A stretch of 64,000 nt of DNA from an uncultured Candidatus Saccharibacteria bacterium (GTDB taxonomy: Bacteria; Patescibacteriota; Minisyncoccia; Phycocordibacterales; PALSA-1337), in contig CAYIYK010000003.1 in assembly GCA_964367745.1 (NCBI GenBank), positions 10,248 to 74,247 on the forward strand, read 5' to 3'. The position numbers were made by a program, and so were the translations under genes. Below the pieces are notes generated by a model. It saw only the letters and a program-made list of their open reading frames with translations. It was not told the DNA's origin and ran no database searches. Below are positions 8,831 to 59,302 of the stretch, one piece after another (positions within the stretch are counted from its first letter, which is position 1; the number at the start of each line of letters is the position of its first letter).

Positions 8831-10471
<1,641 letters not shown>

Positions 10472-20724: not shown

Positions 20725-22957
20725 ACTTACCTTCTTCTATTTGCTTTATAGCCTCATCTACTTGAGACTTTATAAGTGGGAATCTTTCTTTTGCTTTCTT
20801 TAGAAGTTCAATCGCTTGGTATTCTTGTTTACTCAATAGATAAACATAAGCTAGAGATGAATATACTTCTTGATTGTCTTGATCTTTAGCTAATATCTTC
20901 TTATATATTTCAATAGCTTTATCGTACTGTTTTGACAATACATAAGCATTTATAACTCTTGGATCGCTGAATACTTCGAAATCATCTCCAAATAGCTTCT
21001 TCGCTTTTACTTCTTCACCTGCCGTTATAAGAGCTGTAACGTAAGTAGTCTTGGCGATTGGATTGTCTGTTGCTGATTGATACGCTTTGTCTAATATCTC
21101 AACTGCTTCTTTATTTTTACCGATATTTAGATAGTTGACGGCTAGTTCAAATATTATACTTTGCTTGTTTGGAGAAAGTTCATTTGCTTTTTCAAGTAGT
21201 GGTGTAGCTGTATTAAAATCTCTTATAGTATCATAATAACTTCCACCAATAATATATATTCTTGCATCATTCGGAGTTTTCTTTATTTGATTTTCTATTT
21301 CTTTCTTTGCCAAATCGTAGAATGCAGCCTTTTTATCTTGTTGCATTTGTGGATTTTGTATTACATTTGCTGAACAATTTAATAGTTGCTCAACCGACTC
21401 TTGATTTGCAACTGTCTGTCTTAGTTTGAATATTTTTTCAAATGGTACTACTGATACTGTTTGAGGATTTGAACAAGCTATAAGTGCATTTATAAGTCCT
21501 GTATTCGCTTGTATAGCGCGCACATTCACAAAATACATTGAAGTAATGAATAAGATAACAACAACAGGTACATATACATAATCTCTTACTGTTTCAGCAT
21601 CTTCAGATATTGATTTGCTGTAATTTTTAAATATAAATAAATCTTTATTCTTTCTTAATGAATGAACAAAAGCGAGCAATGTAAAGAACATTACATAACT
21701 TGTTTGATTGTCGAATACGAATACATTGTGTATTGCATATCCTACCAATAGACCGATAAGTATAGATTTTTCACCAATAGTTTTTTCACTTTTAATGATA
21801 AAGATTAGAGAGATTAAATATAGAGCTAGATACGCAACTAATCCTAGTATTCCTCCGGCAACAAACCAATCTAGGAAAACACTGTGTGCTCGATCAAACC
21901 ATTGCTCATGTCTCCACATTTCAGGATTGTAATGTGAATTGAATATATAGTTAAAGTTCTCTTGCCCAACTCCGATAATTGCTGTCTTTGGGCTCTCTGT
22001 AATTCCCTTTATAGCCATAGGCCAAATAAATCTTCTTGCTTGAGTCTTTGTATCTGAAATAGATATAGAAGCCAATCTTCCCAATACTTCATTCTTTTGA
22101 ATCCAACTAGCATTTCTATTGAAATAAAATAGTGTACCGATAACAACTACTAGTAGAATAACTGAACCAGAAACTACTCTACTTATATTTGATTGACCAC
22201 TACTCTTTCTACCAAAAATTGTATAAATAGCACATGAAGCAATAATAGCAATCGTCCAACCTATGATAGTTCCTCGAGTTGCTGTTTGAAACATTATAAA
22301 AGAGAAAAATGCTGCGGCAATAGCATATGAATAGAACAAATGCTTCTTTGCAAAATAACTTATAGCCAAATATCCCGCAATAAATGCATTAAATAACATA
22401 TAAACCGCCATGTATGCAGAGTTACCTAGAGATGCATCGACTCTACTTCCTTGATGTGTTTCTGCCCAACCGAAAAACTGTGTTAGACCGTAAAGTGCAG
22501 TTATAAATCCAGAAACAATTACAACATTGAAAAACTTATGCCAACTCTCTTTTGTCTTAAGTACTGAAGATAGAACCATGAAATAACCCCAAAGGTGTAT
22601 TATCATCAACCAACCTTCCATTCTTTCGAAGTTTGACCAAATACTTCTAAGTGGATTTAGACCAGCTAAGTCAGCAATCAGAGCAATAAGAGTAAATATA
22701 CCTATAGAAATAGATATTGCATTGCATCGCGGAAGAACACTTCTATCTGTTCCGACAACACTAGTGCCTCTTTCTCTGAAAACAAGAATCAGCCATAGAG
22801 CAAAGACAATTTCAACAATTATTCTAAAAGCGAATCCTTTACCAGTGATGAATGGAAAGAATAAAGAATTAACGACGTAAGTTGGGATAAATGGGATTAC
22901 TGCTAAACCGATAATAATTGCGTATTTGATTAAAGTATTTATTGTTGCATTGTTCAT
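20711..22957 (-). CDS. O-antigen-ligase-family (Wzy_C-like) polytopic membrane protein with a C-terminal TPR-repeat domain
   Basis: 748 aa. The N-terminal ~430 aa have about 12 TM helices and a large loop between late helices, as in WaaL/PglL. The C-terminal ~300 aa are TPR-like (YYDT..., AVNYLNIGKNKEAVEILDKAYQ, SSLAYVYLLSKQEYQAIELLKKA). Confidence 0.45.
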   Translation of the reverse strand: MNNATINTLIKYAIIIGLAVIPFIPTYVVNSLFFPFITGKGFAFRIIVEIVFALWLILVFRERGTSVVGTDRSVLPRCNAISISIGIFTLIALIADLAGLNPLRSIWSNFERMEGWLMIIHLWGYFMVLSSVLKTKESWHKFFNVVIVSGFITALYGLTQFFGWAETHQGSRVDASLGNSAYMAVYMLFNAFIAGYLAISYFAKKHLFYSYAIAAAFFSFIMFQTATRGTIIGWTIAIIASCAIYTIFGRKSSGQSNISRVVSGSVILLVVVIGTLFYFNRNASWIQKNEVLGRLASISISDTKTQARRFIWPMAIKGITESPKTAIIGVGQENFNYIFNSHYNPEMWRHEQWFDRAHSVFLDWFVAGGILGLVAYLALYLISLIFIIKSEKTIGEKSILIGLLVGYAIHNVFVFDNQTSYVMFFTLLAFVHSLRKNKDLFIFKNYSKSISEDAETVRDYVYVPVVVILFITSMYFVNVRAIQANTGLINALIACSNPQTVSVVPFEKIFKLRQTVANQESVEQLLNCSANVIQNPQMQQDKKAAFYDLAKKEIENQIKKTPNDARIYIIGGSYYDTIRDFNTATPLLEKANELSPNKQSIIFELAVNYLNIGKNKEAVEILDKAYQSATDNPIAKTTYVTALITAGEEVKAKKLFGDDFEVFSDPRVINAYVLSKQYDKAIEIYKKILAKDQDNQEVYSSLAYVYLLSKQEYQAIELLKKAKERFPLIKSQVDEAIKQIEEGKFRTP

Positions 22958-24431: not shown

Positions 24432-26312
24432 TTAAAATTTAAATCCTTTTTTCTTTAATTCTTTTAACATGTACTCTGTGATAATCCAATCAAGTGGATA
24501 GTCTATATCTATAGATCTCTCTTTTGGTACTATATACCCTGCAATCTTATCTCCATATAACCTCTCTTCTTTCATAATCAAATCTCTTCTCATACAATAT
24601 ATTGCTGCACTTCTCTTGTATGCTACAGGTAGATCTTGTCTTCTTGTACCTTCTACTTCAGGAACAGAATATGCACTGATGAAGTCACCTTCTAATTTTT
24701 TAATCTTAATTGGATTTACATTACTTGGTACTTCAACTATTGATACTGCACTATCTGCTTTTGTATCTATAAGTTTTTGAATTGTTCCATCGATATCGTC
24801 TATAGTTCTAAAAGGTGAAGTTGGCTGAAGAATAACTACATAGTCGATAGTGATATTATTTTTCTTTTCATAAAAATCTATTGCATGTTGCATTACAGGA
24901 AGATGTGGAGTTGAATCTAGAGCCAATTCTTTTGGTCTCATAAAAGGTACATCTGCACCATACTTCTTACACACATCGGCAATCTCTTTGTCATCTGTTG
25001 AAACGATAAGATGATTTATCAATTTACTTTTCTTTGCAGCATCGATTGTATATGCAATAAGAGGTTTATTGCCAAGTTTCTTTATATTCTTACCCGGAAT
25101 ACCTTTTGACCCTCCGCGAGCTGTAATAACGCCAAGGACGTTTGGAGTTCTGTATTCCCTATCTACATGTTCTTCTGTAAGCGGTTCAAATTTCTTTATA
25201 TCTTTTATTATTTTTTTATCCAAAATATCATGGAAAAGATTCGAGAAAATTCCATTTAGATGAAGTCTTGGTCTCATAGCGTAAACCATATCACTCGTGA
25301 TTATTGTTCCAGCTTTAATATCTCTTGAAGCAACGAGTGTTTTGTTGAAATAAGGTCTAAACTTATTTTGTGCACCTTCCAATTCTTTTTCCTTTTGACC
25401 GTAGAAAATATTTGTATCTATTTTCTTATATTCATTTTTCTTAATACCAGAGACCAATTGTTTCATTTCTTCTGGAGTTACTGAAGCTTTATGGTCTGAA
25501 CCCCAAAGGCCTCGGTCTAGAGAAAAGTGTTTCTCTATAACCTGCGCACCCATTTTTACTGCAGCTAAAGGAATAGTATTATCTCCAACTGAATGATCAG
25601 AAAAACCGATGATCGCTTGAGGGTATTTTTCTCTAAAATATTCTATAGTAGAAAGGTTAAAAGCTTCTGGAGGACATGGATATTCACTAACGCAATATAG
25701 AATAATAATTGGTGACCCACGCTTTGTTATATAGTCAACAACGTCATCCAACTCTTTGTGACTAACCATTCCTGTTGAAATGATTATTGGTTTTTGTGTC
25801 TTTGTAATAAAGTCCAAAAGAACATGATCCTGAACATCACCAGAACCTACTTTCCAGAAAGGTACATCTAGATTCTCAAGCTTAACCGCTGCCATTCTAG
25901 ACATCGGAGTTGAGAAGAATATAATTCCCTTTTTTTCTGAATATCTTTTTATCTCTTTGAAGAATTCTATAGGTGCTTCTTCAGTATTTCTTTTAACCCA
26001 AGAATATCTATCACTGCCTTTGAAGTGCGGAGAAACTACATTTATATTTGCTTGTTCATCTTCAACTTCATGAGTTTGAAATTTCACAGCATGTGCACCA
26101 GCTTTTACTGCTTCGTCGATAAGCTTTTTTGCATTTTTAATATAGACTTTTAGAGGTTGAGACTCTTGTGTTTGTATAAAATTCTTACCGATTTCAGCAA
26201 TAACAAAAACTTTATCTTTTGATATGATCTTAGAGATAGCGTGAGGTTTCACTATTTTTGAATTTTTGTTCTTACTGGCTTTAGAAGATTTAACAGACTT
26301 TTTTGTTTTCAT
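24432..26312 (-). CDS. Bifunctional fusion: N-acylneuraminate (nonulosonic acid) synthase NeuB with SAF domain, plus CMP-N-acylneuraminate cytidylyltransferase NeuA
   Basis: N-terminal half: VFVIAEIGKNF...AVKFQTH...IIILYCVSEYPCPPEAFNLSTI...GFSDHSVGDNTIPLAAVKMGAQVIEKHFSLD, then an SAF domain (LVASRDIKAGTIITSDMV). C-terminal ~230 aa: LGVITARGGSKGIPGKNIKKLGNKPLIAYTIDAA...LIVSTDDKEIADVCKKYGADVPFMRPKELALDST, the NeuA/CMP-Kdo-synthase-like fold. The first ~25 aa are Lys-rich. Confidence 0.75.
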   Translation of the reverse strand: MKTKKSVKSSKASKNKNSKIVKPHAISKIISKDKVFVIAEIGKNFIQTQESQPLKVYIKNAKKLIDEAVKAGAHAVKFQTHEVEDEQANINVVSPHFKGSDRYSWVKRNTEEAPIEFFKEIKRYSEKKGIIFFSTPMSRMAAVKLENLDVPFWKVGSGDVQDHVLLDFITKTQKPIIISTGMVSHKELDDVVDYITKRGSPIIILYCVSEYPCPPEAFNLSTIEYFREKYPQAIIGFSDHSVGDNTIPLAAVKMGAQVIEKHFSLDRGLWGSDHKASVTPEEMKQLVSGIKKNEYKKIDTNIFYGQKEKELEGAQNKFRPYFNKTLVASRDIKAGTIITSDMVYAMRPRLHLNGIFSNLFHDILDKKIIKDIKKFEPLTEEHVDREYRTPNVLGVITARGGSKGIPGKNIKKLGNKPLIAYTIDAAKKSKLINHLIVSTDDKEIADVCKKYGADVPFMRPKELALDSTPHLPVMQHAIDFYEKKNNITIDYVVILQPTSPFRTIDDIDGTIQKLIDTKADSAVSIVEVPSNVNPIKIKKLEGDFISAYSVPEVEGTRRQDLPVAYKRSAAIYCMRRDLIMKEERLYGDKIAGYIVPKERSIDIDYPLDWIITEYMLKELKKKGFKF

Positions 26313-28507: not shown

Positions 28508-28537
28508 CCCTCACGTAAAAAGCGTGGGGGTCTTTTT
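28508..28537 (+). terminator. Rho-independent terminator
   Basis: A ccctcacg ... cgtggggg stem (8 bp, one G-U pair) followed by TCTTTTT. Confidence 0.5.
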
Positions 28538-29693
28538 ATTCAACAAAAGTCTTTTGAGTATAAAGAGGTACAGTAGCTATAACCTCTGCAATCTTTTTAC
28601 TTGTACCTTCTGCAAAATATAGACTTGATGATTCGTATCTGCCTTTTTTAACTTGTTTCTCTATTGCTTTCTTTATAGCTTTAATATCATGGTCTACAGT
28701 TACTACATTTTCTGCACTCAATCTTTTGAATTGTCTATTACCAATATTCACCACAGGCAAACCCATAAAAGAAGATTCCTTTATTCCAGCTGATGAATTC
28801 CCTATCAAACATAGACTGTTATTCAATAGCCAAATAAAATCCTTTGGACCCATATATCGCATGAAGCGTATTTTATGTCCTTTAACTTCATCTTTAAAAA
28901 TTCGAAGCTCATGTGATATATCTTCTGCACCGGCATCAGCATTTGGCCAAAACCAAAGTGTTGGAATCTTTAGACTATGTACAGCATCAAGGATTTTCTT
29001 TGTATTTTCATGTACATGCTTCACATCCATAATATCAGGATGATACATAACTATTAGATATCCTTTCTTTAGATCAAAAAGGGCCCCACTTCCTGTTTTC
29101 TTTATATCGAATTTATGTTTATTTTTTGCTAATTTTTGTACAACTTCTATTTCTGGACTACCAAAATTGAAAACGTGAGATTCTCTTTCTCCAAGTCTCA
29201 ATACTCTTTTTCTTGCTGGTTCATTTGTTGTAAAGTGAATATGAGAAAGTTTTGTGATAGCGTGTCTTACACTTTCATCTATTGATCCAGATACATCACC
29301 ACCTTCTATGTGTGCGATAGGTATAGATAAATATGCAGCTGCAATTGTAGCTGATAGAACTTCAAATCTATCACCTCTTACCACAACGACATCAGGTTTA
29401 ATCTGATTAAAAAGTGTAGTGAATTCTATTATTCCTAGTCCTGTTGTTTTTGCTTTTACGATTGTATCATTCCCTTCTAGATTGAAATGTAGTTCGTATA
29501 GCTTGTTATATCCGTCTTCCGTCAAAAGTTTTCTTATATCAGCAAGTTTTGAAGTATAACGAGACAATAAAGCTGTACCTCCAACTATTATATGTAGGTC
29601 AATATCCTTTCTTTTCTTTAGTTCTTCTAGAATAAGAAAGTTACGACTATAGTGTATGAAACTTGTAATAACAAAGCAGACTTTTCTCTTCAT
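28536..29693 (-). CDS. neuC: UDP-N-acetylglucosamine 2-epimerase (NeuC-type, hydrolysing)
   Basis: 385 aa. VVVRGDRFEVLSATIAAAYLSIPIAHIEGGDVSGSIDESVRHAITKLSHIHFTT is the conserved epimerase core, and the GT-B-like two-domain layout is present. Confidence 0.75.
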   Translation of the reverse strand: MKRKVCFVITSFIHYSRNFLILEELKKRKDIDLHIIVGGTALLSRYTSKLADIRKLLTEDGYNKLYELHFNLEGNDTIVKAKTTGLGIIEFTTLFNQIKPDVVVVRGDRFEVLSATIAAAYLSIPIAHIEGGDVSGSIDESVRHAITKLSHIHFTTNEPARKRVLRLGERESHVFNFGSPEIEVVQKLAKNKHKFDIKKTGSGALFDLKKGYLIVMYHPDIMDVKHVHENTKKILDAVHSLKIPTLWFWPNADAGAEDISHELRIFKDEVKGHKIRFMRYMGPKDFIWLLNNSLCLIGNSSAGIKESSFMGLPVVNIGNRQFKRLSAENVVTVDHDIKAIKKAIEKQVKKGRYESSSLYFAEGTSKKIAEVIATVPLYTQKTFVE

Positions 29694-29696
29694 AGT

Positions 29697-30680
29697 CTAG
29701 CTAATATGCAGTATTTTTCGTAAAAATGCAAATCTATTTGAATACTTTATTATGTATATTATTTTAACCAAGATTGGTGATAGTGATACGCGCGCTTTAA
29801 GATAAATATTCTTCGGAATTTCTATATCTTTTGATAATGTATCCTTCCTTGCAACCAAACGTATATGGTGGGTATTCAATCCATCTTGTTTTTGCTTCTT
29901 TATTTGTTCTTGCTTTTTACCTTCATCAACATCCATATAGACGATTACGAAACCTGCTTTTTTACACATTAAAGAAAGTGTCTCTGGTGTAAACATATAG
30001 ACATGGTCAATCTGCACTCCAGACTGAAGCTTCCCCATTCTTCTAACTTGATGTCTCCAGTTTTTCACTGCAAGGAAAATATGACCACCTGGTTCCAGTG
30101 CTTCATGTGACCAATTTAGGAATTTCATTGGATCTAAAAGATGGTTCAAACTTTGAACACAAAGAATATTTTTTACTTTATTCTTAATATCCATATTCAC
30201 ATCTTCAAAAAGCCCGCGAATAGTCTTTACGCCTTTTGATTCTGCATAACCCGATTCTTCAAGCGAAGGTTCAATACCTAGCAGTTCTAGATTTTTCCTA
30301 GATTCCCTCATACCAAAAAGGATTCCACCAGTACTTGAACCAACGTCGATAGTAAGTCCGTCTTTTACATATTTACCCATATAACTGACTATAGCCTTAC
30401 CGAATCTTCTAGCATTCTCGAAGTTCTTCTCTAGATCAGAATTGTATTCACGATTCTTTATACTAGCTCTATCTTGTCTATAAAAAGACATATAGTATTC
30501 ATCATAATCTTTTGCAGTCATACGTGGGTTAATAAAGACTAGACTGCACTTCTTACACATTACTGTATTTGCTTTGAGATTGTTTACACTTCTTTTAACA
30601 ATTATTTTAAAATCATTTCCACCACAAAGATTACATGCGATGTATTCTAAATTCTTTTTATTATAATCAAATCCTTCCAT
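29697..30680 (-). CDS. SAM-dependent methyltransferase with an N-terminal CxxC...CxxC zinc ribbon (architecture like NDP-hexose C-methyltransferases of the TylCIII type); paralog 1
   Basis: CNLCGG...CKKCSLVFINPRMT zinc ribbon, then motif I IDVGSSTGGILFG, then IDHVYMFTPETL. It is a clear paralog of the ORFs at 33365-34312 and 34384-35520. Confidence 0.55.
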   Translation of the reverse strand: MEGFDYNKKNLEYIACNLCGGNDFKIIVKRSVNNLKANTVMCKKCSLVFINPRMTAKDYDEYYMSFYRQDRASIKNREYNSDLEKNFENARRFGKAIVSYMGKYVKDGLTIDVGSSTGGILFGMRESRKNLELLGIEPSLEESGYAESKGVKTIRGLFEDVNMDIKNKVKNILCVQSLNHLLDPMKFLNWSHEALEPGGHIFLAVKNWRHQVRRMGKLQSGVQIDHVYMFTPETLSLMCKKAGFVIVYMDVDEGKKQEQIKKQKQDGLNTHHIRLVARKDTLSKDIEIPKNIYLKARVSLSPILVKIIYIIKYSNRFAFLRKILHIS

Positions 30681-30681
30681 T

Positions 30682-32040
30682 TTATTTAATTAAATTAATT
30701 ATATAATCTGCAATTCTCTTTCCTGATAAACCGTCTGTATAACTTGTCTGTTCTTTTACCAAGATCTCTCTTTCTTTACTCTTTACTGATGGATCATCAA
30801 GATATTTATTTATTGAATCCAATAACTCTTGTTTGCTATTAACTAGATCGATAGCACCGGTCTTTAATGCATTCTTATAATGCCAAGTTCTATAGTATTG
30901 TACAGGAGATTTCAATAATTTTGGAATTATATTTATTTCAAAATTTATATTTATTACAGGTTTATTAAAAATACTTGCATCGATACTAATACTTGAAGCA
31001 TAGCAAACCAAAACAGACATATGATAAAGAGTATCCTGCAAATGTTCTAGATCTGCTTTATTCATATCCCAATCTACACCTCTTTTTGTACCAAAACGTA
31101 TACCAGGCTTATCATATTTTAGATCTGGTCTCTTTGATATTTCTTCTTCATCAACAAAGTCATTTGGTTGGAATCGGACCAATAATTCACATTCGTATTT
31201 CAATTCATTTGAGTGAATAGTTTTTTGCAAAAGGTCGATTATATCCCAATCTGCAGAACTGAACGCTCTCCCCATTGGAGCGTATACTATCAATTTCTTA
31301 TCACTTGATATTTTTATTTTATTAAAAAATTCTTCTCTTAAAATAGGTTTCCTTGTGTAGAAGAAATCGTATTGTGGCAGACCGCTGATAAAAATATCTT
31401 CCGATTTCATTTCATTCAAATCAATCATCTCCTTTTTTACGATATCGTTAAAAACTATAGCTTTATCAGGTAATAATCTTAAAATGCATCTTGATGTAAC
31501 TTTGTCCCAAGAGTTTATATAGCCTATCGTTTTTATTTTTCTTTTTTTTGCTTCTCTTAAAAGATTGATTTCTATTTCTTCAAATAGATGTGCGGTGAAA
31601 ACAAGATCTGGTGAATATTTATCAAAATATTCACTATATGTATTGTCTTTTATTAAAATAAAATCCAAATATCGTACGATTCTTCTTATCACAGGCCAAG
31701 CCAAAATATAGTTCGATACTTTACCAAAATAGTATCCGAAAAATCTTCCTTCATATTCACTTACCATTTTCCTTTTTAAATCTGTTGTTTCAGTTCTAAG
31801 TAAAGTGAATTTCATCTTTGAGAAAAACCCATCAAACATTGGTACAGATTTTTGCTCGACAAATTCAAATACTATTCTTGGATCATTGAATTCATTTTTA
31901 TAATAATCAACTTTTTGTTGTGATTTTGTAAATAGAACAATTTTAATATCTTTATTTAAAAGAAGATTTTCCAAAATCGGTGTTCGTAGAATATTTTTTA
32001 CTTCTACACCCTCAAAGATTGTTACAAATATTGTCTTCAT
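30682..32040 (-). CDS. TagF-like / 'HP-motif' GT-B family protein (CDP-alditol-phosphotransferase-like or CMP-sugar-transferase-like); paralog A
   Basis: 452 aa. The shared core with the paralogs is IKTIGYINSWDKVTSR, IVFNDIVK, GLPQYDFFY, LLVRFQPNDF, KPVININ. Here the His of the HP-type motif is replaced (RFQP). Confidence 0.4.
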   Translation of the reverse strand: MKTIFVTIFEGVEVKNILRTPILENLLLNKDIKIVLFTKSQQKVDYYKNEFNDPRIVFEFVEQKSVPMFDGFFSKMKFTLLRTETTDLKRKMVSEYEGRFFGYYFGKVSNYILAWPVIRRIVRYLDFILIKDNTYSEYFDKYSPDLVFTAHLFEEIEINLLREAKKRKIKTIGYINSWDKVTSRCILRLLPDKAIVFNDIVKKEMIDLNEMKSEDIFISGLPQYDFFYTRKPILREEFFNKIKISSDKKLIVYAPMGRAFSSADWDIIDLLQKTIHSNELKYECELLVRFQPNDFVDEEEISKRPDLKYDKPGIRFGTKRGVDWDMNKADLEHLQDTLYHMSVLVCYASSISIDASIFNKPVININFEINIIPKLLKSPVQYYRTWHYKNALKTGAIDLVNSKQELLDSINKYLDDPSVKSKEREILVKEQTSYTDGLSGKRIADYIINLIK

Positions 32041-33365
32041 TTATTTATTGATTCTAGTATTGCATTAAAAAGTCTTTCAGTATTTTTGCCATCCAAAAAT
32101 CCAGTTTCCATCTCTGCTAGTTTCTTTCTTTTATCTTTATCCAGACTAGGATTTTTAACGTATTCTTCTACATAGTCTTTAAATTGACGCATAGATTCAG
32201 CCAGCTTCACACCTCCACTCTCTATTACTGGAATAAAATTGTTATAATCATAATATCTTCTTATACTATCAAAATATTCCCTTTTTTCATGTCCGTCAAA
32301 ACCAAAAAGGATTATTGGTTTATCCATATATGCAGAATCCAAAACTAAAGTTGATGGTGAGCTGATAACCAATTCTGACCAGAACAATGTATGAGCAAGA
32401 TGTATATCATCATCTTTATCGATCTCTGTAATTTTTATATTATCAAATTTAGGTTTTGCTCTGTCATACATAACCTTAATATTTGGAAACTTCGGACTAT
32501 TCTCCAATTCTCTAACATAATCTCCAGGTGGAAGTCTGACTAGAAGTTGATAATCATTTGGTAAAGTCTTATCCAAAATATCTACAATATCTCTGTCTAC
32601 AGTATTTTTTCTCAAATATCGATCACCTAGAGGTATAAATAAAGCCAGCTTTTTATTCTGATCACCACCTATTTTTTCTATAAATTCTTTTCTATTTGTA
32701 AATACATTCTTTTTATAATCATCATAGTGTGGAATTCCGACAATAGATATTATTGATTCATTTATTCCTTGAAGATCTTTTGCTTCATCTTTAATGATAT
32801 TGTTCCAAACAAAAAGTCTATTCGGAATCGTTCGAATGATACCTTTTGAAGTAAGATTGTCCCAAGAACGAACCATACCGATAGTCTTTATACCTGAGGA
32901 ATTACCTTCATTTAAAATCGCTATATCGATTTCGCTTTGAATATCGGTAGCGAATACGCAATCAGGTTTATACTGCTCAAATAATTTATCAAATTTTTTA
33001 TTTTTATAACTTACTCTTTCCAAGAATCTTACGAATTTATGCCCGATTTTATTTGATAATAAATAAGTTAAATACATTCCACTCCCTTTCATCTCTGTCT
33101 TCCTTTTTATATAAAGAGTTTTTGTATTTAATGCTGTTAGCGAAAGATACTTTAATAAATTTTCTCTTTTAGCATTTTTAAATTCTATTCCTTCAACAAC
33201 TACCCCATCTCTTTCAAAACTTTCTTTAAAAAAACTCTCTTTATTTTTTGGAGCAATTATTACAACTTTTATTTCATTCTTAACAAAGAGATCCAAAATT
33301 CCAGATGAAAGAATATTTCTTGATATTAGAGGATGGCAACTAGTTATAAAAATTGTCTTTTTCAT
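32037..33365 (-). CDS. TagF-like / 'HP-motif' GT-B family protein; paralog B
   Basis: 442 aa. IKTIGMVRSWDNLTSKG, FVWNNIIK, GIPHYDDY, LLVRLPPGDY, KPIILFG. The His is also replaced here (RLPP). Confidence 0.4.
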   Translation of the reverse strand: MKKTIFITSCHPLISRNILSSGILDLFVKNEIKVVIIAPKNKESFFKESFERDGVVVEGIEFKNAKRENLLKYLSLTALNTKTLYIKRKTEMKGSGMYLTYLLSNKIGHKFVRFLERVSYKNKKFDKLFEQYKPDCVFATDIQSEIDIAILNEGNSSGIKTIGMVRSWDNLTSKGIIRTIPNRLFVWNNIIKDEAKDLQGINESIISIVGIPHYDDYKKNVFTNRKEFIEKIGGDQNKKLALFIPLGDRYLRKNTVDRDIVDILDKTLPNDYQLLVRLPPGDYVRELENSPKFPNIKVMYDRAKPKFDNIKITEIDKDDDIHLAHTLFWSELVISSPSTLVLDSAYMDKPIILFGFDGHEKREYFDSIRRYYDYNNFIPVIESGGVKLAESMRQFKDYVEEYVKNPSLDKDKRKKLAEMETGFLDGKNTERLFNAILESINK

Positions 33366-34312
33366 TATCTTTTAAGGAATTGCTGTAGACGTACTGTAAG
33401 TAAATATCTTAAATAAATATAATATTTGTTTATTGATAATAAAGTAAAAATATAATTACCCTTACCTATTGTTAAATCCTTGAAGGGGGTTTTATTCAAT
33501 CTTTTAGCCACAATGCGAATATGTACTTTTGGAATTCCCTGCATGACCTTCTTTTTTGTATATTCATTAGCTTCAAAGAAAAGGATTTCGAATCCAGCTG
33601 ATACAATGAAATCTCTCAAAACCTCAGGTGTATACATATAGACATGGTCGATCTTTACACTATTTTCATACTTTCCTGCTTTTTGTAATTGCTGTCGAAA
33701 ATTCATAACTTCAACTACAAGAAGTCCATTATCAAAAAGAGACTCGTGAGCCCATTTGAAAAAATATCTAGGATCCAAATAGTGATTTAAAGCTTGAGTA
33801 CTGACTATAACTGCGAATTTTTCTTTTTTATTATGATCTTCGATTAGAGCATGATAAGTCTTTATTCCTTGAGAATTCGCATAATCTGATTCAATCTTTG
33901 ATGGCTCAAGACCAATTACTTCTCTATTCAAAAATCTTTTCATTCCTTCCAAAACTCCTCCGACACCAGAACCGACTTCCATTATTGAGCCTTTTACTTT
34001 TAGATATGGTGATATAAGCTCACCCAAGAATTTGCCGTGTCCGATGGTTGATTCGAACAATTTCTTACAATCAAAATCTGAACCTGCTTCGCCATTGTTT
34101 ATAGTTTTTTGTCTGTATTCTTCTTCATAATAGAATTTGTAACCAGACTTTGTCATTCTAGGATTTATATAAATAAGCCCGCATTTTTTACAAATAACAG
34201 AATTCAAAGCAAGACCATCAGTGCCTTTTTTTGACAGGATTTTATAATTGTTACTTAAACAGAAACTGCAAGCAATATTCTCCTTTTCAATTGTATTGTA
34301 TGGGAAAGACAT
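33365..34312 (-). CDS. Zn-ribbon SAM-dependent methyltransferase; paralog 2. The likely start is at 34312; the six-frame ORF extends to 34432.
   Basis: CSFCLS...CKKCGLIYINPRMT, then MEVGSGVGGVLEG, then IDHVYMYTPEVL. It is collinear with paralog 1. Confidence 0.55.
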   Translation of the reverse strand: MSFPYNTIEKENIACSFCLSNNYKILSKKGTDGLALNSVICKKCGLIYINPRMTKSGYKFYYEEEYRQKTINNGEAGSDFDCKKLFESTIGHGKFLGELISPYLKVKGSIMEVGSGVGGVLEGMKRFLNREVIGLEPSKIESDYANSQGIKTYHALIEDHNKKEKFAVIVSTQALNHYLDPRYFFKWAHESLFDNGLLVVEVMNFRQQLQKAGKYENSVKIDHVYMYTPEVLRDFIVSAGFEILFFEANEYTKKKVMQGIPKVHIRIVAKRLNKTPFKDLTIGKGNYIFTLLSINKYYIYLRYLLTVRLQQFLKR

Positions 34313-34383
34313 TTTATGATAAACAAGTATATCACAACAAAATATTGCTTCAATTAAGATTAAATTCTGATATACTGTCTCAA

Positions 34384-35520
34384 ATGGAAATAAAAATCGA
34401 TAAGGTCGCAAATCTAAGTGGCTGGAAATCATATACAGTAGACAATACTAATGATTTTATAACTATAAATGATTGCTTGTGTTGCAAAGGAAAACTAAAA
34501 GTTACAATTCGAAATAAAAATCAAACAGACGATACAAAGATTGATATTGGAACTTGTGTAAATTGTGGTTTTACAACCTATATTAATAAACCAAGTCACA
34601 AATGGATTATCGATTTCTACAATTCAACTTGGAATAAAGAAGAGGGTGAAGAGAATAATTTTGTAAATAAAGATCTACAATCTAGCAAACTAACAATAGC
34701 CCTAGAAAAAATAAATTTCCCAAAGAATGGTTCAATATGTGAAATCGGCACAGGAAGAGGCGGTAACTTTGCTGCGCTTATAAATAATGGTTATAACAAT
34801 CTTATTGGTGTAGAGAATTCAATACACAGAGCTGATACAGTGAGTAAAGCTCTAAATGATGTTCCTATATACACAGGAGGTTTTGAAGAAGAAAAAGTAC
34901 AAAATGCTCTAGCGAAACATGGAAGTTTCGATTTGATATACACTGCTCATGTAATGGAACATATTTATAATCCTGAAGAGACTATTGAACTATGTTCAAA
35001 ACTTCAGAATGAAAATGGTCATTTGATAGTCGCTGTGCCGAACTTCGTAGGTGAACCTAGTATAGGTATTTCTTCTTTCCTTCCCCATTTACATTCTTTT
35101 ACAAAAGAATCGATGATAAGACTTTTGAATAATAAAGGGTATCAAGTTATAGATGATAGTTACACTACAGAGTTTGAATTGTTTCTTATTGCTCAAAAGA
35201 AAAGTAATATTAATAAAAAACTAGATAATAAGACTGATTATATAAAACCTGCTCAAGACAAATTTATTAAAGAATTAAAATTGAATGAAATTCCCCTAAA
35301 TCAGTCTGTATTCTATTTTTTCTCTAAGAAAAATTATTCAGTATCTGGATATAAAATACTAAATAAAATATCAATAATAAAAACAATTCAAGCTATGTTT
35401 TTCAAATTCATTCAAAGAAAAAAAGGTTATAGATCTTTCGTATTTACTTTGATGAATAAAGATAAAAATCAACCAATTGTATTGAATTGGAAGAAATCTA
35501 TTATTCTTTTCTATAAATAA
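34384..35520 (+). CDS. Zn-ribbon SAM-dependent methyltransferase; paralog 3, divergent. The likely start is at 34384; the six-frame ORF begins at 34231.
   Basis: CLCCKG...CVNCGFTTYINKPSHKW, then EIGTGRGGNFAALI. The architecture matches paralogs 1 and 2. Confidence 0.5.
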   Translation: MEIKIDKVANLSGWKSYTVDNTNDFITINDCLCCKGKLKVTIRNKNQTDDTKIDIGTCVNCGFTTYINKPSHKWIIDFYNSTWNKEEGEENNFVNKDLQSSKLTIALEKINFPKNGSICEIGTGRGGNFAALINNGYNNLIGVENSIHRADTVSKALNDVPIYTGGFEEEKVQNALAKHGSFDLIYTAHVMEHIYNPEETIELCSKLQNENGHLIVAVPNFVGEPSIGISSFLPHLHSFTKESMIRLLNNKGYQVIDDSYTTEFELFLIAQKKSNINKKLDNKTDYIKPAQDKFIKELKLNEIPLNQSVFYFFSKKNYSVSGYKILNKISIIKTIQAMFFKFIQRKKGYRSFVFTLMNKDKNQPIVLNWKKSIILFYK

Positions 35521-36471
35521 TTAGAAATTATAGAATTTCGGCTCCTTCTTTATCTTATTTGAAACTGCGATTTTAGCTTCATTAGATAGTCCATTTGTAT
35601 CTAGTGATTTCGGATATTTATATAGTATAGGCCAAACAGATGCTGGAGAAGTGTATACACTTGTATACATGAATCTATTACTTGTCTTTGCATGACCGCC
35701 TCTATGCAAACCGCTTGTATCGCAGAATATTATTGTTCCAGCTTTACCTGTACACACAATTTTGTCTTCATTAGGAATTAAGGAATCCTGGCTTGCACTA
35801 CCTCGTGGTGGCTGTTGTGGTGATATATGTCTCCATTTACCGAAGATATGAGACTTTTTAACATAAATAAAAGGGCCAGCATTGTCATCAACATCATTTA
35901 GATAAAGGAACACTTTTACAAGTTGTTGATCTTCAGGATCTCTGTGCCACTCTTGTGATGCGTAACTTCTCATTCCTTCAGGCATAGGTACGGTCACTTG
36001 GAATCTCCAATCAAAAAACTTCATATACATTTTCATATATGCATTCACTGTTCCGAGAATTTGATTACTCAGACTCATTTTGGTGAGAGGATGTTTTAGA
36101 TCCAATATTCTCTCTCCATTCCAAAGATCGATCAAAAAGAAATTCTTACTTTTCAACTTGTCACCATCCAATAGATTACCTCTAGAGTCGTATCTTTCTT
36201 TAACGTCTTTATCATTCCATCGATTCTGTGCAATCTTCTCCAATTCAGCATATACGTGCTTTGGAAAAAGTTTATCGATATGACTTATTGCAATACCGTC
36301 TCTATTTAGATCTTCGACGATTTTCTTCTGTTCATCTGACAATTTATTTTCACTCTTTTTATAAAGTCTAATACTTGAGATATTTAGTAGAGTCCAGACA
36401 AATCGACTTGCTCTGATGCGATGATAAAAACGTGCGATTATACCTATAACACTTTTTATTATTTTCTTCAT
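35521..36471 (-). CDS. Phytanoyl-CoA-dioxygenase (PhyH)-family Fe(II)/2-oxoglutarate oxygenase
   Basis: WHRDPED (HxD) ... GTIIFCDTSGLHRGG (distal His). The size and spacing fit PhyH-like hydroxylases. Confidence 0.55.
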   Translation of the reverse strand: MKKIIKSVIGIIARFYHRIRASRFVWTLLNISSIRLYKKSENKLSDEQKKIVEDLNRDGIAISHIDKLFPKHVYAELEKIAQNRWNDKDVKERYDSRGNLLDGDKLKSKNFFLIDLWNGERILDLKHPLTKMSLSNQILGTVNAYMKMYMKFFDWRFQVTVPMPEGMRSYASQEWHRDPEDQQLVKVFLYLNDVDDNAGPFIYVKKSHIFGKWRHISPQQPPRGSASQDSLIPNEDKIVCTGKAGTIIFCDTSGLHRGGHAKTSNRFMYTSVYTSPASVWPILYKYPKSLDTNGLSNEAKIAVSNKIKKEPKFYNF

Positions 36472-36478
36472 AAATAAA

Positions 36479-37873
36479 TTAAATAATTTTTCCTAAAAAA
36501 TCGACATTTCTCTTATAAGACAAACCGTCTCTAAAGAAAATAAAATCATTGAATACTTTCTCTTGTTGCTTCTTTTTTACATCGTGATTTTTCAAACAAA
36601 TATTAACATGTTCAACGATATTATCGAAACTCTTTGAGAGAAAAACTGCATCAGCATCTACTATAGGTTTATAGTGACGGAAATTGTATGCTCTATGATA
36701 CTTTTCTGGATAATCTATATTTACAACTGGTTTTCCGAAGATAAAAGATTCAAGGGTCATTGTTGAAACGTAGTTTATAACTACATCAGAATATTTTAGA
36801 GTTAATTTTAGATTCAAAATATCATCTTCATGTATTTCAATTCTTGTACCCATTTCTTGTGAAAGTAACTTGCCTGGATATTCAACATGGAGATTTGGAA
36901 TTTTACTATCAATATATACTTTGAACTTATCAAACTCTTCTTTTGGATGCATTCGCACTAGAATATTGGGTTTACCATCGAATTTGCCTTGATCACGAGC
37001 TTTCAATAGTTCACCAAGAAGAATATCTTCATCAGGGTAATTCCCCTTTGTAACTGTAGTTATAAGTATTGTTTTTTCTTTTGGATTCAATCCTTTACTC
37101 AAAAGGAACGCTTCTCTAGACTGTTCACTTGGATTGTTTACAGAATAAGAGTCGAAACGCATTGTACCTGAGACAAATACATTATCTTCTGAATATCCAT
37201 ATTCTTTAACTGCGGTATTTTTTATTATTTTATTCCAAACGATTAGATAATCTGGTCTTCTAAAATGCATTCCTCCATTGTGAAGATTGTCCCAACTGAA
37301 GTTTACTGCAGCAGTCTTTATACCAAACTTCTTAGCATATATTATTGCTTCAGCATCAGGATGACTGAAGCCAGGAGTTGCTGTTAGAAACATAACTGGG
37401 TTGTATTCTTTAATCTTTTCTTCAAGAGCCTTTGATCTTGGTATAAAAATTTTCTCAAGTTTAGTAAATAAATCATTTGTCCAAAAAGATGCAGGGGCAA
37501 TGTAAGAAAAATACTTCAAAAATCTTCTTCTCCAATCCTTCATCCCCTTTTCTTTATTTCTTACAACCACTGGTTCAAAATCGTATTTACGGATTATTGA
37601 ATATCTAAAATATTTACCAAATAGATTCCAAAATCCTGGATTTTGTAATTTCCAAGGAACATAAGTCACATTTTCTGATTTAAAATATGGTTTATTATCT
37701 TCACAAAAAGCTTGTGGGGACATAAATACGACTACTTTGTATTTTGTTGATAAATACTTTATATAATCTGTACGCAAAAAATCTGATGAGTAAACAAAGT
37801 TCGAAATAAAAAGAAATATTGTTTTCATAGAAAGGTATTGTAGCATATATGTTATAATCCTTATTATTACCAC
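36479..37873 (-). CDS. TagF-like / 'HP-motif' GT-B family protein; paralog C. It is the only one of the three that retains the His-Pro motif.
   Basis: 464 aa. IKTAAVNFSWDNLHNGG, IVWNKIIK, LVRMHPKEEF, KPVVNIDYP. Confidence 0.4.
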   Translation of the reverse strand: MVIIRIITYMLQYLSMKTIFLFISNFVYSSDFLRTDYIKYLSTKYKVVVFMSPQAFCEDNKPYFKSENVTYVPWKLQNPGFWNLFGKYFRYSIIRKYDFEPVVVRNKEKGMKDWRRRFLKYFSYIAPASFWTNDLFTKLEKIFIPRSKALEEKIKEYNPVMFLTATPGFSHPDAEAIIYAKKFGIKTAAVNFSWDNLHNGGMHFRRPDYLIVWNKIIKNTAVKEYGYSEDNVFVSGTMRFDSYSVNNPSEQSREAFLLSKGLNPKEKTILITTVTKGNYPDEDILLGELLKARDQGKFDGKPNILVRMHPKEEFDKFKVYIDSKIPNLHVEYPGKLLSQEMGTRIEIHEDDILNLKLTLKYSDVVINYVSTMTLESFIFGKPVVNIDYPEKYHRAYNFRHYKPIVDADAVFLSKSFDNIVEHVNICLKNHDVKKKQQEKVFNDFIFFRDGLSYKRNVDFLGKII

Positions 37874-38992
37874 ATGAAAAAGCCTATTCTGCTACTCTGG
37901 ATAATTTCATCATGGATTCTCTATCCTTTTTTTAGTCTATCTTCAAAAATTAAGAGTAAGAAACTAGGTAAAAAGAAAAGGATACTTGTATTACCTCAGC
38001 TTTCTAGAATTGGGGACATCGTCTGTTCTACAGGCGTATTTTATAACATAAAAAAATCATATCCTGATAGTTATGTATCTGTACTAGTATCAAAGAGAGC
38101 ATTTGGAATTATAAAAAACAATAAAAGAATCGATAATTTTATTATTTATGAAGACTATTCTTTTTTTGGTTTAATAAATAAAATTAAATCAGAGAATTTT
38201 AACTATTCAATAAACCTCACAGCAACATCAATAAATACATGTTTAACACTTTGGAGTTGTATAGATCACAGAATAAAGACTGTGGTAGAAAATCCCCCGA
38301 TTACTGAGAGACTAACTGATTGTATGTCTAATCATCGATTGTTATACAAGAATCATACGTATTTACCGCTTCATCATATAAAGTTGTTGAATTTTATTGG
38401 AATAAATAATCCTGAAGATAAAAAAGAAATCTGGCTAAGTGATACAGCAGAAATAAAAGCGAATGATTTTGTTAAAAATCTTGGAGAAAATAAGAAAATA
38501 ATTGGAATAAGTATAACCGCAGGAAATAAAATAAAAGAACTCGGTGATGAGAGATTTGAAAAATTAATAAATAAACTATTAGAAAATAAAGAAAATATTG
38601 TTTGTTGTATAGGATCAAAAAACGATTCAGAAAGAATAGATAAAATAATATCAAGCGTAAATAATCCTCGTTTCATTAAAGCAACAGATTTTAACTTGGA
38701 AGAGTTACCATCTCTTATGAAAAGATTCTCACTTTATATAGCAGTTGATACAGGCCCTATTTATATCGCACATGCTCTGGGAGTACCTCTAATAGACATA
38801 ATAGGTCCAGTAGATCCGGATGAACAACCACCAAAAGACAGTAAGAGTATACGAATTCTTCCTAGAGGAGATATTAAGCCTAGTTCATTTGTATTTAAGA
38901 GACGTGGAACTCAAGATGAAATCATCTCAGCAATACAAAATACTGATATAAACGATATCTATAAAGCAGCAAGTATACTATTGAGTAAGTAG
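37874..38992 (+). CDS. Glycosyltransferase family 9 (heptosyltransferase-like)
   Basis: KRILVLPQLSRIGDIVCSTGVFYNIKKSYPDSYVSVLV is the GT9 N-terminal signature, and DTGPIYIAHALGVPLIDIIGP is the GT9 C-terminal motif. Confidence 0.65.
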   Translation: MKKPILLLWIISSWILYPFFSLSSKIKSKKLGKKKRILVLPQLSRIGDIVCSTGVFYNIKKSYPDSYVSVLVSKRAFGIIKNNKRIDNFIIYEDYSFFGLINKIKSENFNYSINLTATSINTCLTLWSCIDHRIKTVVENPPITERLTDCMSNHRLLYKNHTYLPLHHIKLLNFIGINNPEDKKEIWLSDTAEIKANDFVKNLGENKKIIGISITAGNKIKELGDERFEKLINKLLENKENIVCCIGSKNDSERIDKIISSVNNPRFIKATDFNLEELPSLMKRFSLYIAVDTGPIYIAHALGVPLIDIIGPVDPDEQPPKDSKSIRILPRGDIKPSSFVFKRRGTQDEIISAIQNTDINDIYKAASILLSK

Positions 38993-40366
38993 ACCGTATC
39001 TAACAAACCATCCTCGAACTATTGATATTCCCTTTCGAAGGATTATTTTATCTTCTTCTTTGAAACCAAAGATAATTTTAAAATCAAAATGGAATCCTTT
39101 ATCCTGATTTTTTGTGTATATATAGTTTGCAATAACCATAATTAAAGGTACGAGTACAAATTCAAGAGACAATCCCCAAAGACCGATAATTGGTAGGGTA
39201 GAAACGATGAGACCAAGAGTCAAACTATTTCTTAATAGATGTAGAAAGAAAAGGTATTTTTGTTTTCGTAGTGCTATGAGATAGTTGCCGATTATGATTC
39301 CACTTGCAAATATTGGTAAATTCAAGAGCATAAAGTAGAACAATGGTATTGATTGTGCGTATTTTGAGAAGAAAGTATAGACGACTGGTGGCACGACAAC
39401 AATCGCTGATATAACCACCAATATACTTCCAAGTACAAAATATTTTATTCCATAAGAAAACATTTTTACCGATAGATGTTTGTCTTTTATCCAAAGTGGT
39501 ACGAGAGATTGCATTGTATTACTTGGAATTAGATCTTGAATAGTTGTAACAATAGTCTCTGCGATAGAATATATAGCCACTGCTTCTGTGCCAATGAAAA
39601 GTTTAACCAGCCAAGGTTTAACCCTGAAAGTTATTTTATTTATAAATTGTCGAAGCACATCCCAAGTACCATAGGTGGTGAAAATATTCCACAACAATAC
39701 ATTTGGAGTAGCTACAATATGACTCCATTTGAAATATACCTTGAAGAATTGATATGAAACTGCCAAAACACTGAGTGATGAAGCGATGATTATAGATAGT
39801 ATCAATTGTTTCAAACCAAGATTGCCTTGCAGGAAATAATAAATAAGTACAATAGATTGAATAGCTTTATTTATAGTATATCTCTGAGCAACTACTGAGA
39901 ACTTCAATCTGACTAGACATAGTAATCGTATAAGAACGAACAATCCTTCACTCAAAATCACAAAAGAAATCATTCTCATATCTTTTACGAAATCGATATC
40001 GTAAGATTTAAAGAAGTAAACTGAACCGAAGAATATTATTGCCCAAGCAATGAAAGTTATAACTATTCTAACCAAAGAATATTCTAAGAAAATTCTCTTT
40101 GCATCACTAAGTCTATTGTCAGCAATTGCTCGAGACATTTCATTTGAGATAATAGCTGAACCAAGATTCAAAACATCAGACGGTACACCTGAAAAAGAAA
40201 GTAGGAGTTGGAATACACCGTACTGATACAGGGTAAGAGATGTAATGGTTAAGAATGTATTCAATAGACCTATTGCCTTTGTCACAAGATTCCAAAAGGT
40301 TGAAATAGCTTCCCCTTTTAAGAAAATAGCCATAAATGACGGCTTTTTTTGAGTATTTGTATCCAT
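38978..40366 (-). CDS. Polytopic membrane protein, Wzx-like oligosaccharide flippase (MOP superfamily) candidate
   Basis: 462 aa with about 12-14 TM helices. It sits inside the glycan locus. No catalytic motifs, and the topology resembles Wzx. Confidence 0.4.
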   Translation of the reverse strand: MDTNTQKKPSFMAIFLKGEAISTFWNLVTKAIGLLNTFLTITSLTLYQYGVFQLLLSFSGVPSDVLNLGSAIISNEMSRAIADNRLSDAKRIFLEYSLVRIVITFIAWAIIFFGSVYFFKSYDIDFVKDMRMISFVILSEGLFVLIRLLCLVRLKFSVVAQRYTINKAIQSIVLIYYFLQGNLGLKQLILSIIIASSLSVLAVSYQFFKVYFKWSHIVATPNVLLWNIFTTYGTWDVLRQFINKITFRVKPWLVKLFIGTEAVAIYSIAETIVTTIQDLIPSNTMQSLVPLWIKDKHLSVKMFSYGIKYFVLGSILVVISAIVVVPPVVYTFFSKYAQSIPLFYFMLLNLPIFASGIIIGNYLIALRKQKYLFFLHLLRNSLTLGLIVSTLPIIGLWGLSLEFVLVPLIMVIANYIYTKNQDKGFHFDFKIIFGFKEEDKIILRKGISIVRGWFVRYGLLTQ

Positions 40367-55823: not shown

Positions 55824-55875
55824 ATGGAGTTCTATATGTTTAATATTTTACCATGGTTTTTTATATTAAGTATAG

Positions 55876-57441: not shown

Positions 57442-57471
57442 CAAAAAACACCCTATGGGTGTTTTTTGATG
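57439..57471 (-). terminator. Perfect 15-bp inverted repeat with a 3-nt loop between pilA and the downstream gene. On the minus-strand transcript it is a hairpin followed by a U-rich tract whose 3' arm contains the downstream gene's AUG.
   Basis: catcaaaaaacaccc-tat-gggtgttttttgatg on the plus strand, about 25 nt after the pilA stop codon. The minus-strand RNA reads 5'-caucaaaaaacaccc-aua-ggguguuuuuugAUG-uauaauuuauuuauguuuuc. Confidence 0.55.
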
Positions 57472-57495
57472 TAACCGTATTGTTACCAGATTGTA

Positions 57496-57975: not shown

Positions 57976-58015
57976 AACGAAATAATTAACTTAATAAATA
58001 AAACTAATAATTCAA

Positions 58016-59294: not shown

Positions 59295-59302
59295 ATAAAA
59301 TA

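Follow-up and report, generated by a model that had tools for sequence, protein, structure and literature searches.

Enzymes of the TagF-like family are defined by two histidines described as invariant and critical, and bacterial sialyltransferases by an HP motif (PMC10901376, PMC2169525). In TagF and TarL, the proposed catalytic base is the histidine of a WHG motif (TagF H444, TarL H300), and the second histidine (H584 and H433, respectively) touches the α-phosphate of the donor and protonates or stabilises the cytidine monophosphate (CMP) leaving group (PMC10901376). The 'PRND' arginine of TagF and CgoT has also been named a key conserved active-site residue, and the first histidine is known to vary in some TagF-like enzymes, Cps7A having a tyrosine in its place (PMC11666461). 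The histidine of the sialyltransferase HP motif likewise binds the CMP phosphate, and its replacement by alanine lowers Vmax 6-fold in NmB-polyST, to ~16%, and lowers activity 30-fold in PmST1, leaving ~3% (PMC2169525). A further described group is that of BFO_1060 and Tanf_01245 of Tannerella forsythia, genetically validated transferases of pseudaminic and legionaminic acid (Pse/Leg) that are TagB-like, carry an HP motif and have both CMP-nonulosonate genes and a methyltransferase gene as neighbours (PMC5420450). Here we analyse a window of 64,000 nucleotides from an uncultured Candidatus Saccharibacteria bacterium (phylum Patescibacteriota; contig CAYIYK010000003.1, positions 10,248 to 74,247), which encodes three paralogous GT-B proteins of this superfamily, designated A, B and C, among several methyltransferases. 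Only C keeps the HP histidine. The reading that we favour, with moderate confidence, is that A, B and C are three distinct and active GT-B transferases, likely to use donors of the CMP-nonulosonate type, and that A and B form a pair with a remodelled leaving-group pocket.

Three GT-B paralogs of the TagF superfamily

The three genes lie on the minus strand of the window, at 30682..32040 (A, 452 amino acids, aa), 32037..33365 (B, 442 aa) and 36479..37828 (C, 449 aa), with a 4-bp overlap between A and B. A first-pass annotation, made from the sequence of the window, had placed three GT-B open reading frames (ORFs) here; all three are present, and only the start of C, put at a GTG at 37873, is more likely to be the ATG at 37828, where all of its orthologs begin. 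The paralogy proposed for them is borne out by pairwise BLASTP (A/B, 30% identity, E 3e-62; A/C, 25%, E 2e-29; B/C, 26%, E 4e-21) and, on such values, is well past chance, as is that of the methyltransferases described below. The longer motif first proposed (IKT.G..SWD(K/N)) is off by one residue in its spacing; all three proteins contain SWD(K/N), together with (V/I)(W/F)N.I.K and a segment that reads LLVRFQP in A, LLVRLPP in B and ILVRMHP in C.

Profile comparisons place A, B and C in the TagF/TagB-BFO_1060 superfamily of GT-B proteins. A (41.9 bits, E 8e-11) and B (34.2 bits, E 2e-8) score over the gathering threshold of Pfam PF04464, Glyphos_transf (22.1 bits), with C under it at 17.8 bits. 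Alignment of the A/B/C family (353 sequences) with hhalign reaches 96% probability against a two-sequence TagF profile, and 98-99% (E 1e-13 to 5e-17) is obtained against a 77-sequence one, so that the relationship to TagF suspected from the outset is upheld. The best NCBIfam match of each protein is the BFO_1060 family (NF046086; A 52.7, B 47.8 and C 82.9 bits); C also matches TIGR04396, and B gives weak matches to TarL and TarB. The AlphaFold2 (AF2) models of A and C, with predicted local distance difference test (pLDDT) values of 92.5 and 94.8, adopt a GT-B fold, the N-domain of which contains a long helical insertion (residues ~68-142).

Searches with these models also bear on whether the three proteins are transferases at all. 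In Foldseek, UDP-N-acetylglucosamine (UDP-GlcNAc) 2-epimerases are the top matches of both A and C (E 2e-13 and 2e-10), and a fragment of C shows weak, sub-threshold Pfam matches to Epimerase_2 and DUF354, as might be expected of GT-B enzymes that resemble epimerases or hydrolases (NeuC, PseG or WecB type) and have nucleotide sugars as substrates. We consider such an identity very improbable. The template modelling (TM) scores of the matches are only ~0.5-0.57 and TagF stands in the same top-50 lists, which reflects a shared GT-B clade; the helical insertion is absent from epimerases; and the operon already contains a bona fide NeuC. The sequence profiles, moreover, match Glyphos_transf and TagF and not Epimerase_2 (PF02350), to which A and B give no match and the C fragment one of E 0.036 (13.4 bits, against a threshold of 30.6). 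The first-pass annotation had itself raised a family unrelated to TagF, such as a PseG-like hydrolase, as an outcome that would undo its proposal, and it is TagF that the profiles match instead. Sequence and profile searches of the PDB with A, C and the orthogroup profiles returned nothing meaningful and, the Foldseek matches being generic, A, B and C are without a close solved relative.

The residue at the HP-histidine position

The sequence of Staphylococcus epidermidis TagF, in native numbering, was taken from a PDB alignment seeded with a plasmid-borne TagF homolog of L. plantarum; in the PDB entries of TagF mutants, H444 lies within 'IQTWHGTPLK' and H584 within 'VILLRMHYLIS'. Gln291 of A, Pro279 of B and His294 of C (codons 31168..31170, 32529..32531 and 36947..36949, all on the minus strand) share a single alignment column, hereafter column 291, and pair with TagF His584 in every hhalign run. 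Arg289 pairs just as regularly with TagF R582, S349, S350 and D354 with S624, S625 and D629, and the segment G220...D225 with G508...D513. Within that last segment, Q223 of A, H213 of B and R224 of C pair with R511, the 'PRND' arginine of TagF. The (Q/P/H)P motif hence occupies the HP-type position, with histidine in C alone, as had been claimed, and proper alignment did not shift it to a register in which all three proteins would keep the residue.

The two donor-phosphate positions change together. C has the TagF-like combination of Arg224 with His294-Pro295; B has His213 in place of the 'PRND' arginine and P279-P280 in place of HP; and A has glutamine at both (Q223, Q291). What did not stand is the view of the HP histidine as a catalytic base, for the published work makes it the acid that assists the leaving group and a contact of the donor phosphate (PMC10901376, PMC2169525). 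Judging from the 3-16% of activity that His-to-Ala mutants retain, this histidine is not strictly needed in sialyltransferases.

Conservation and selection in A, B and C

Each of the three proteins has a deep orthogroup in Patescibacteria, with members from genomes named as Parcubacteria, Paceibacterota, Giovannoni-, Taylor-, Sung- and Harrisonbacteria. An origin in Leptospira, which the G+C content and the neu genes might have suggested, was rejected on account of these patescibacterial homologs. Column 291 is histidine in all 113 sequences of the C orthogroup, proline in all 117 of B and glutamine in 107 of the 120 of A (89%, the rest being P, L or S). Around 20 other columns are kept across the orthogroups, those kept in all three including W178-D179, G220, D225, R289, P292, S349, D/E354, R424, D436-G437 and R442, and the remaining TagF donor-site residues, together with the invariant Trp-Asp, are retained in at least 97% of A and B orthologs. 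The differences from the TagF donor site in A and B are confined to the two donor-phosphate positions, and both are fixed. Each group has, in addition, fixed residues of its own on the loops of the cleft: H151 and K180, plus R304, R315 and R320, in A; D141, R166 and R249 in B; and P152 and F177 in C. The invariant arginine cluster of A (R304, R315, R320) forms part of a C-domain hairpin, R249 of B follows Cβ1, and a histidine common to all three groups stands at A387/B376/C385; these residues are candidate substitutes for the lost His and Arg contacts.

All three genes are under purifying selection. Compared with one close relative (locus L090), A has a ratio of nonsynonymous to synonymous substitution rates (dN/dS) of 0.082 and B one of 0.091, similar to the 0.064 of NeuC; the ratio is 0.029 in C and 0.024 in the methyltransferase MT1. 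Mean column identity across comparable orthologs, on the other hand, is higher in A (61%) than in C (50%).

It had been proposed that A and B are pseudo-enzymes or scaffolds. C would then be the sole catalyst of a complex in which A and B act as non-catalytic partners, be it as chaperones, acceptor-binding subunits or membrane anchors, and the streptococcal GtfA/GtfB pair would be a parallel. A does lack both cationic residues at the donor phosphate (Q223, Q291) and B the HP histidine; the two are somewhat less constrained than C (dN/dS 0.08-0.09 versus 0.03); and a B-A fusion and their tight co-occurrence, documented below, indicate physical or functional coupling. Nonetheless, we regard a scaffolding role as unlikely. 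The rest of the donor site and the Trp-Asp are preserved, both proteins form deep orthogroups with low dN/dS, and the substitutes do not look like the product of drift, being themselves fixed, with proline in 100% of B and glutamine in 89% of A. A is better conserved than C and, in some of the loci examined, lies next to nonulosonic acid (NulO) genes without C within 8-10 kb, one Patescibacteria locus type having neither B nor C nearby, so that a partner-only role would leave no catalyst in the vicinity; and the B-A fusion contains no His-bearing domain. Pseudo-glycosyltransferases are recognised by relaxed selection along with erosion of several donor or catalytic residues, and neither is seen in A or B. 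Both probably function as enzymes whose active site has been rewired, and not as scaffolds.

An exhaustive phmmer search with B extends these observations to a wider family of 3,968 cluster representatives at E≤1e-3 (484 at E≤1e-30), in which residues were counted over 142 domains of the best 150 matches. Asp179 is present in 142 of the 142 domains and Trp178 in 140, and column 291 is labile, with P in ~83, H in ~48 and a few Q, Y, N, S, T and A. Histidines at 223 and 291 are negatively associated (odds ratio 0.14, Fisher p 6e-7, without correction for phylogeny) and occur together in 20 domains, which fits a gain of His223 before the loss of His291. The HP motif is kept by outgroup members encoded beside nonulosonate genes on plasmids of Rhizobium sp. 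WL3 and Bacillus thuringiensis, which argues that HP is the ancestral state and that Q and P are derived. We also considered a scheme of one relocated histidine per paralog (H151 in A, H213 in B, H294 in C); it is weakened by 13 B-like domains and by the Giovannonibacteria-type A ortholog (loci L003-L005), all of which lack histidine at the equivalents of 151, 223 and 291.

The Trp-Asp motif and the proposed base

No column of the N-domain has a histidine conserved across the three groups, and the first invariant histidine of TagF is therefore not matched. The loop that follows the fifth N-domain strand (Nβ5) carries instead an invariant S-W-D. Four attempts were made to align this WD with the WH444 of TagF, by global hhalign, by a Pfam-position ruler on truncated fragments, with the 77-sequence TagF profile and by segment-restricted hhalign, and all of them yielded low confidence or inconsistent registers; TagF has no helix between Nβ4 and Nβ5, and ~23 extra residues from the WH motif to the next strand. 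In TarL, the WH loop comes after β15 and the second histidine after β19 (PMC10901376), and in the AF2 models of A and C the SWD loop is likewise four strands ahead of the Q/H loop. The spacing from the Asp to column 291 is 112-114 residues, compared with 125 in the polysialyltransferase (polyST; E153 to H278) and 140 in TagF. Agreement in strand topology is the one support for equating WD with WH, and it makes Asp179 the probable base, in replacement of the Trp-His base of TagF.

Genomic context

The surroundings of A, B and C are those of nonulosonate synthesis. The minus strand comprises, by gene spacing, two units, an operon of overlapping or abutting genes, MT2-B-A-MT1-NeuC, and a C-PhyH pair. 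NeuC, a hydrolysing UDP-GlcNAc 2-epimerase (28536..29693, minus strand; TIGR03568, E 2e-102, over the curated cutoff), is the last gene of the operon, and a NeuB-NeuA fusion of 626 aa (24432..26312, minus strand; Pfam NeuB, SAF and CTP_transf_3, and NCBIfam) provides, in its NeuA-type moiety, the only cytidylyltransferase found in an extended glycan locus that spans ~20.7-54 kb of the window. Family members are syntenic with NeuC, NeuB and CTP_transf_3 in each of the six Patescibacteria loci examined; A lies one or two genes from NeuC in each of the five loci retrieved via an A ortholog, and is not adjacent to it in a Taylorbacteria locus (L089). In more distant relatives, NeuB and the NeuA-type cytidylyltransferase are separate genes. 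Elsewhere, a C-type domain is fused to CTP_transf_3 (protein P0111). The adjacency of NeuC and NeuB-NeuA, this fusion of C to a NeuA-like domain and the similarity to the Tannerella Pse/Leg family together favour transfer from CMP-nonulosonates.

The same context weighs on the possibility that the three proteins are TagF-like polyol-phosphate transferases, which would build a teichoic-acid-like polymer from CDP-polyol donors in a composite cell-envelope locus where the nonulosonate genes are mere neighbours. The Glyphos_transf scores of A and B, the 98-99% hhalign probability with collinear C-domains and the weak TarL and TarB matches of B are what such an origin would predict, and Patescibacteria are monoderm-like and could carry polymers of the teichoic type. 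Variation at the first histidine, moreover, has a precedent in the TagF-like Cps7A (PMC11666461). We deem this explanation quite unlikely, all the same, because A and B have neither of the two critical histidines and C is without the first; because no TagD-like or other gene for CDP-glycerol or CDP-ribitol synthesis (TarI, TarJ) was found in the ~33-kb locus, among the ORFs scanned from 17.9 to 62.5 kb of the window; because, in lineages and phyla far removed from one another, the synteny is specific to NeuC, NeuB and NeuA; and because a C-type domain has been joined to one of the CMP-NulO-synthetase type.

A and B probably work as a pair, being adjacent, co-occurring and sometimes fused. In lists of the top 120 matches, their orthologs share at least 28 contigs, compared with the ~9-10 that C shares with either, and P0361 is a natural B::A fusion with the domain order of the genes in the window. 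Other double-domain proteins (P0368, P0458, P0494) carry HP, HF or YP at the His column of their halves. No family member other than A was called within 8 kb in loci L003-L005, which are of the Giovannonibacteria type. A Harrisonbacteria-type contig (JACROC010000006.1, locus L088) encodes two NeuB, two CTP_transf_3, one A-type and one B-type protein, with no C-type within 10 kb, which suggests that some lineages make two different CMP-activated acidic sugars.

The methyltransferases that accompany the three genes are of one general type. MT1 (29697..30680, minus strand) combines a Zn-ribbon (CxxC...CxxC) with a class-I S-adenosylmethionine (SAM) methyltransferase domain (Pfam Methyltransf_23, E 2e-13), and MT2 (33365..34312, minus strand), the first gene of the operon, is its clear paralog (40% identity, E 4e-71). 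MT3 (34384..35520, plus strand), 71 bp from MT2 and convergent with PhyH, had been counted as a third paralog and is related to MT1 and MT2 only distantly (20-23% identity to them, with E from 1e-6 to 1e-8), if with the same ribbon and a Methyltransf_23 match; the motif IDHVYM(F/Y)TPE, attributed to all three, is confined to MT1 and MT2. Among the Pfam families put forward for them, Methyltransf_13/14, the Zn domain of sugar C-methyltransferases, has no match in MT1-3, and a PDB search with MT1 retrieved only a generic SAM methyltransferase. The PhyH-like Fe(II)/2-oxoglutarate dioxygenase (35521..36471, minus strand; Pfam PF05721, E 1e-4) has its HxD at residues 176-178 (HRD).

Comparison with relatives separates a constant from a variable part of the cassette. 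A 648-kb relative has GT9-C-B-A-MT1-NeuC, without MT2, MT3 or PhyH; locus L090 has C-PhyH-MT3-MT2-B-A-MT1, as in the window; and locus L091, whose A ortholog is identical to that of L090 (P0121), has C-MT2-B-A-MT1. The core is made up of C, B, A and MT1 with NeuC, and PhyH and MT3 are a strain-variable insert, plausibly a tailoring module for hydroxylation followed by methylation. The alternation of methyltransferases and transferases in the window is incidental, since relatives have C-B-A in tandem and the insert varies by strain. Of the tandem modules of methyltransferase and transferase envisaged at first, which were to add a methylated or phospho-linked unit repeatedly, the gene order is thus not conserved; a functional link between methyltransferase and transferase is nonetheless supported by a B::MT3 fusion (P0362; 31% identity to MT3 over 311 aa, E 9e-51) and by the methyltransferase gene that recurs beside A in other genomes, the same 327-aa protein being found next to A in the 648-kb relative and in L090 and L091.

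Outside the cassette, a GT9-family glycosyltransferase (37874..38992, plus strand; Pfam PF01075, E 1e-17) is divergent from C and is conserved beside it in the 648-kb relative and in L090 and L091, and a Wzx-type flippase (38978..40366, minus strand; Polysacc_synt) is conserved in several of the Patescibacteria loci examined. Near one end of the locus lies a 748-aa Wzy_C protein of the O-antigen ligase or O-oligosaccharyltransferase type (20711..22957, minus strand), with C-terminal tetratricopeptide repeats (TPRs), which is conserved with A, B and C across Patescibacteria loci together with a D-2-hydroxyacid dehydrogenase (22993-23940). The locus further encodes a cupin, an extra methyltransferase and an EamA transporter, as well as GT2 and GT4 enzymes, two membrane proteins that are GT-C-like and more methyltransferases. 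The segment 26000-28000 stands out by its G+C content (0.40, against 0.30-0.34 in its flanks); it holds a 312-aa class-I methyltransferase (ORF 26409-27347, minus strand, with overlapping spurious ORFs) that is missing at the corresponding position of L090 and L091, the two closest relatives, and looks like a recent insertion. Just past the glycan locus, at 53949-62507, are genes for type IV pilus machinery (a TraG/TrwB-like coupling ATPase, a T2SSF platform protein and two T2SSE ATPases), and pilins are a possible glycosylation target.

Members of the family are also found outside Patescibacteria. On the Rhizobium sp. WL3 plasmid (NZ_CP042825, locus L087), a 'hypothetical protein' (632582-633976; 9001-10395 in the locus) is a full-length HP-type member that keeps the SWD and directly follows neuB-kpsF-GT-neuC-neuA, with two weaker paralogs upstream (1019-2446 and 2452-3801 in the locus); the link between the family and nonulosonate genes hence reaches the Proteobacteria. 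On the B. thuringiensis plasmid pHS18-1 (locus L001), a gene whose annotation reads 'CDP-glycerol glycerophosphotransferase family protein' (1730-3133) has the HP motif, matches Pfam Capsule_synth and is flanked by GT2 genes and by pseudaminic-acid genes (pseC among them); its product had no sequence match in the PDB.

Discussion

Taken together, these results lead us to infer a pathway in which NeuC and the NeuB-NeuA fusion would make a CMP-activated nonulosonic sugar of the sialic-acid type, to be transferred by A, B and C, as one or more CMP-activated acidic sugars, to a lipid-linked glycan that the GT9, GT4 and GT2 enzymes encoded nearby would assemble. The methyltransferases and the dioxygenase would tailor this glycan, Wzx would flip it and the Wzy_C-TPR protein would attach it. 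The C-domain residues that all three transferases have in common (Arg289, Ser349, Ser350, Asp354 and Asp225) would bind the cytidine nucleotide. C would represent the solution adopted by TagF and the sialyltransferases, with Arg224 and His294, and B and A one in which the contacts to the donor phosphate have been remodelled.

Several observations weigh against this interpretation. Synteny alone can mislead, as illustrated by SpsB of B. subtilis, a TagB-like protein encoded beside legionaminic-acid genes that is not needed for Leg transfer (PMC7439481). The window encodes a single nonulosonate pathway against three putative NulO transferases, so that A or B could use another donor. The BFO_1060 scores (48-83 bits) are far under the curated cutoff of that family (200 bits), and the matches lie mostly in the N-domain; sialyltransferases of families GT38, GT52 and GT80 are not among the top 50 structural matches in Foldseek; and the [DE][DE]G motif is absent from A, B and C, in which the conserved acidic motif is S-W-D-(K/N). 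Finally, the equation of WD with the WH of TagF is not established by sequence alignment, and the 13 B-like domains devoid of the three histidines mean that a simple relocation of the residue is not general.

A bolder proposal, possible but doubtful in our view, is that A and B have evolved a His-independent catalysis, the acid having moved to His213 in B, for which double-His intermediates would be extant, or, in A, having been given up entirely. Together they would be an obligate hetero-pair (a single fused protein in certain lineages) and would either polymerise methylated sugars of the sialic-acid type or add them in alternation, the product being an acidic surface polymer of Patescibacteria not known before.

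Neither the fold nor the superfamily is new, and an association with nonulosonate genes is known as well. In the literature searched, however, there is no prior description of the cassette, nor of the fixed replacement of the 'invariant' second histidine and its partner arginine, of the A/B/C triad or of its presence in bacteria of the candidate phyla radiation (CPR), and no link between CPR bacteria and nonulosonic acids was found there. Should A and B be active, they would constitute natural experiments on how, in a GT-B enzyme, the CMP leaving group can be stabilised when the canonical histidine is missing. More generally, the locus points to a conserved surface glycan of the sialic-acid type in the ultra-small, host-dependent Patescibacteria, and the retention of more than 30 kb of glycan genes in genomes of ~0.6-1 Mb suggests that this glycan matters, be it in attachment to the host or in evasion of it.

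Comparison with known systems

The TagF-like CDP-polyol phosphotransferases, represented by S. epidermidis TagF (PDB 3L7I-M), S. aureus TarL (8VA1) and Pfam PF04464, share with A, B and C the GT-B fold and a collinear C-domain with R-x-[H] after Cβ2 (R582/H584), SS...D (S624, S625, D629), a G-x-P-x-x-D loop (G508...D513) and a C-terminal D-G...R; a cytidine-nucleotide donor is implied. They differ in that A, B and C have an invariant W-D in place of the WHG histidine (an equivalence taken from strand topology and not from sequence), keep the second critical histidine and the 'PRND' arginine in C only, have a long helical insertion in the N-domain and none of the N-terminal domains of the polymerases, and are encoded in a context of nonulosonate and not of CDP-polyol biosynthesis.

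Bacterial sialyltransferases of families GT38, GT52 and GT80, such as NmB-polyST and PmST1, are metal-independent enzymes with CMP-sugar donors, and their likeness to A, B and C lies in an N-domain acidic residue as the likely base, in its distance from the HP motif (112-114 aa here, 125 in polyST) and in the motif itself, which follows a β-strand and reads 'KIFIKLHPKE' in NmB-polyST, 'IFVRLHPKE' in the C orthogroup and 'ILVRMHPKEE' in C of the window. On the other hand, there is no detectable sequence or profile match between the two groups, and A, B and C have S-W-D-(K/N) instead of the D/E-D/E-G of the sialyltransferases. Two-module capsule enzymes, namely the dual-GT107 KpsC and the TagF-like Cps polymerases, resemble the present family in that transferase modules, paralogous or unrelated, act in pairs and may be fused (here P0361, the B::A fusion, along with P0368, P0458 and P0494, which have two domains each), but are either drawn from other GT families, with a reduced GT-B and a QxxxD nucleophile, or join TagF-like modules to hexosyltransferase modules of the GT-A or GT-B type.

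The BFO_1060 family of Tannerella offers the remaining parallel. The D/E-D/E-G and DXD motifs reported for Tannerella do not occur in that form in A, B or C, and A and B are without HP. Nonetheless, the two families have in common a length of ~445 aa, a TagB-like GT-B fold, CMP-nonulosonate genes as neighbours and an adjacent methyltransferase gene and, in the case of C, the HP motif as well.

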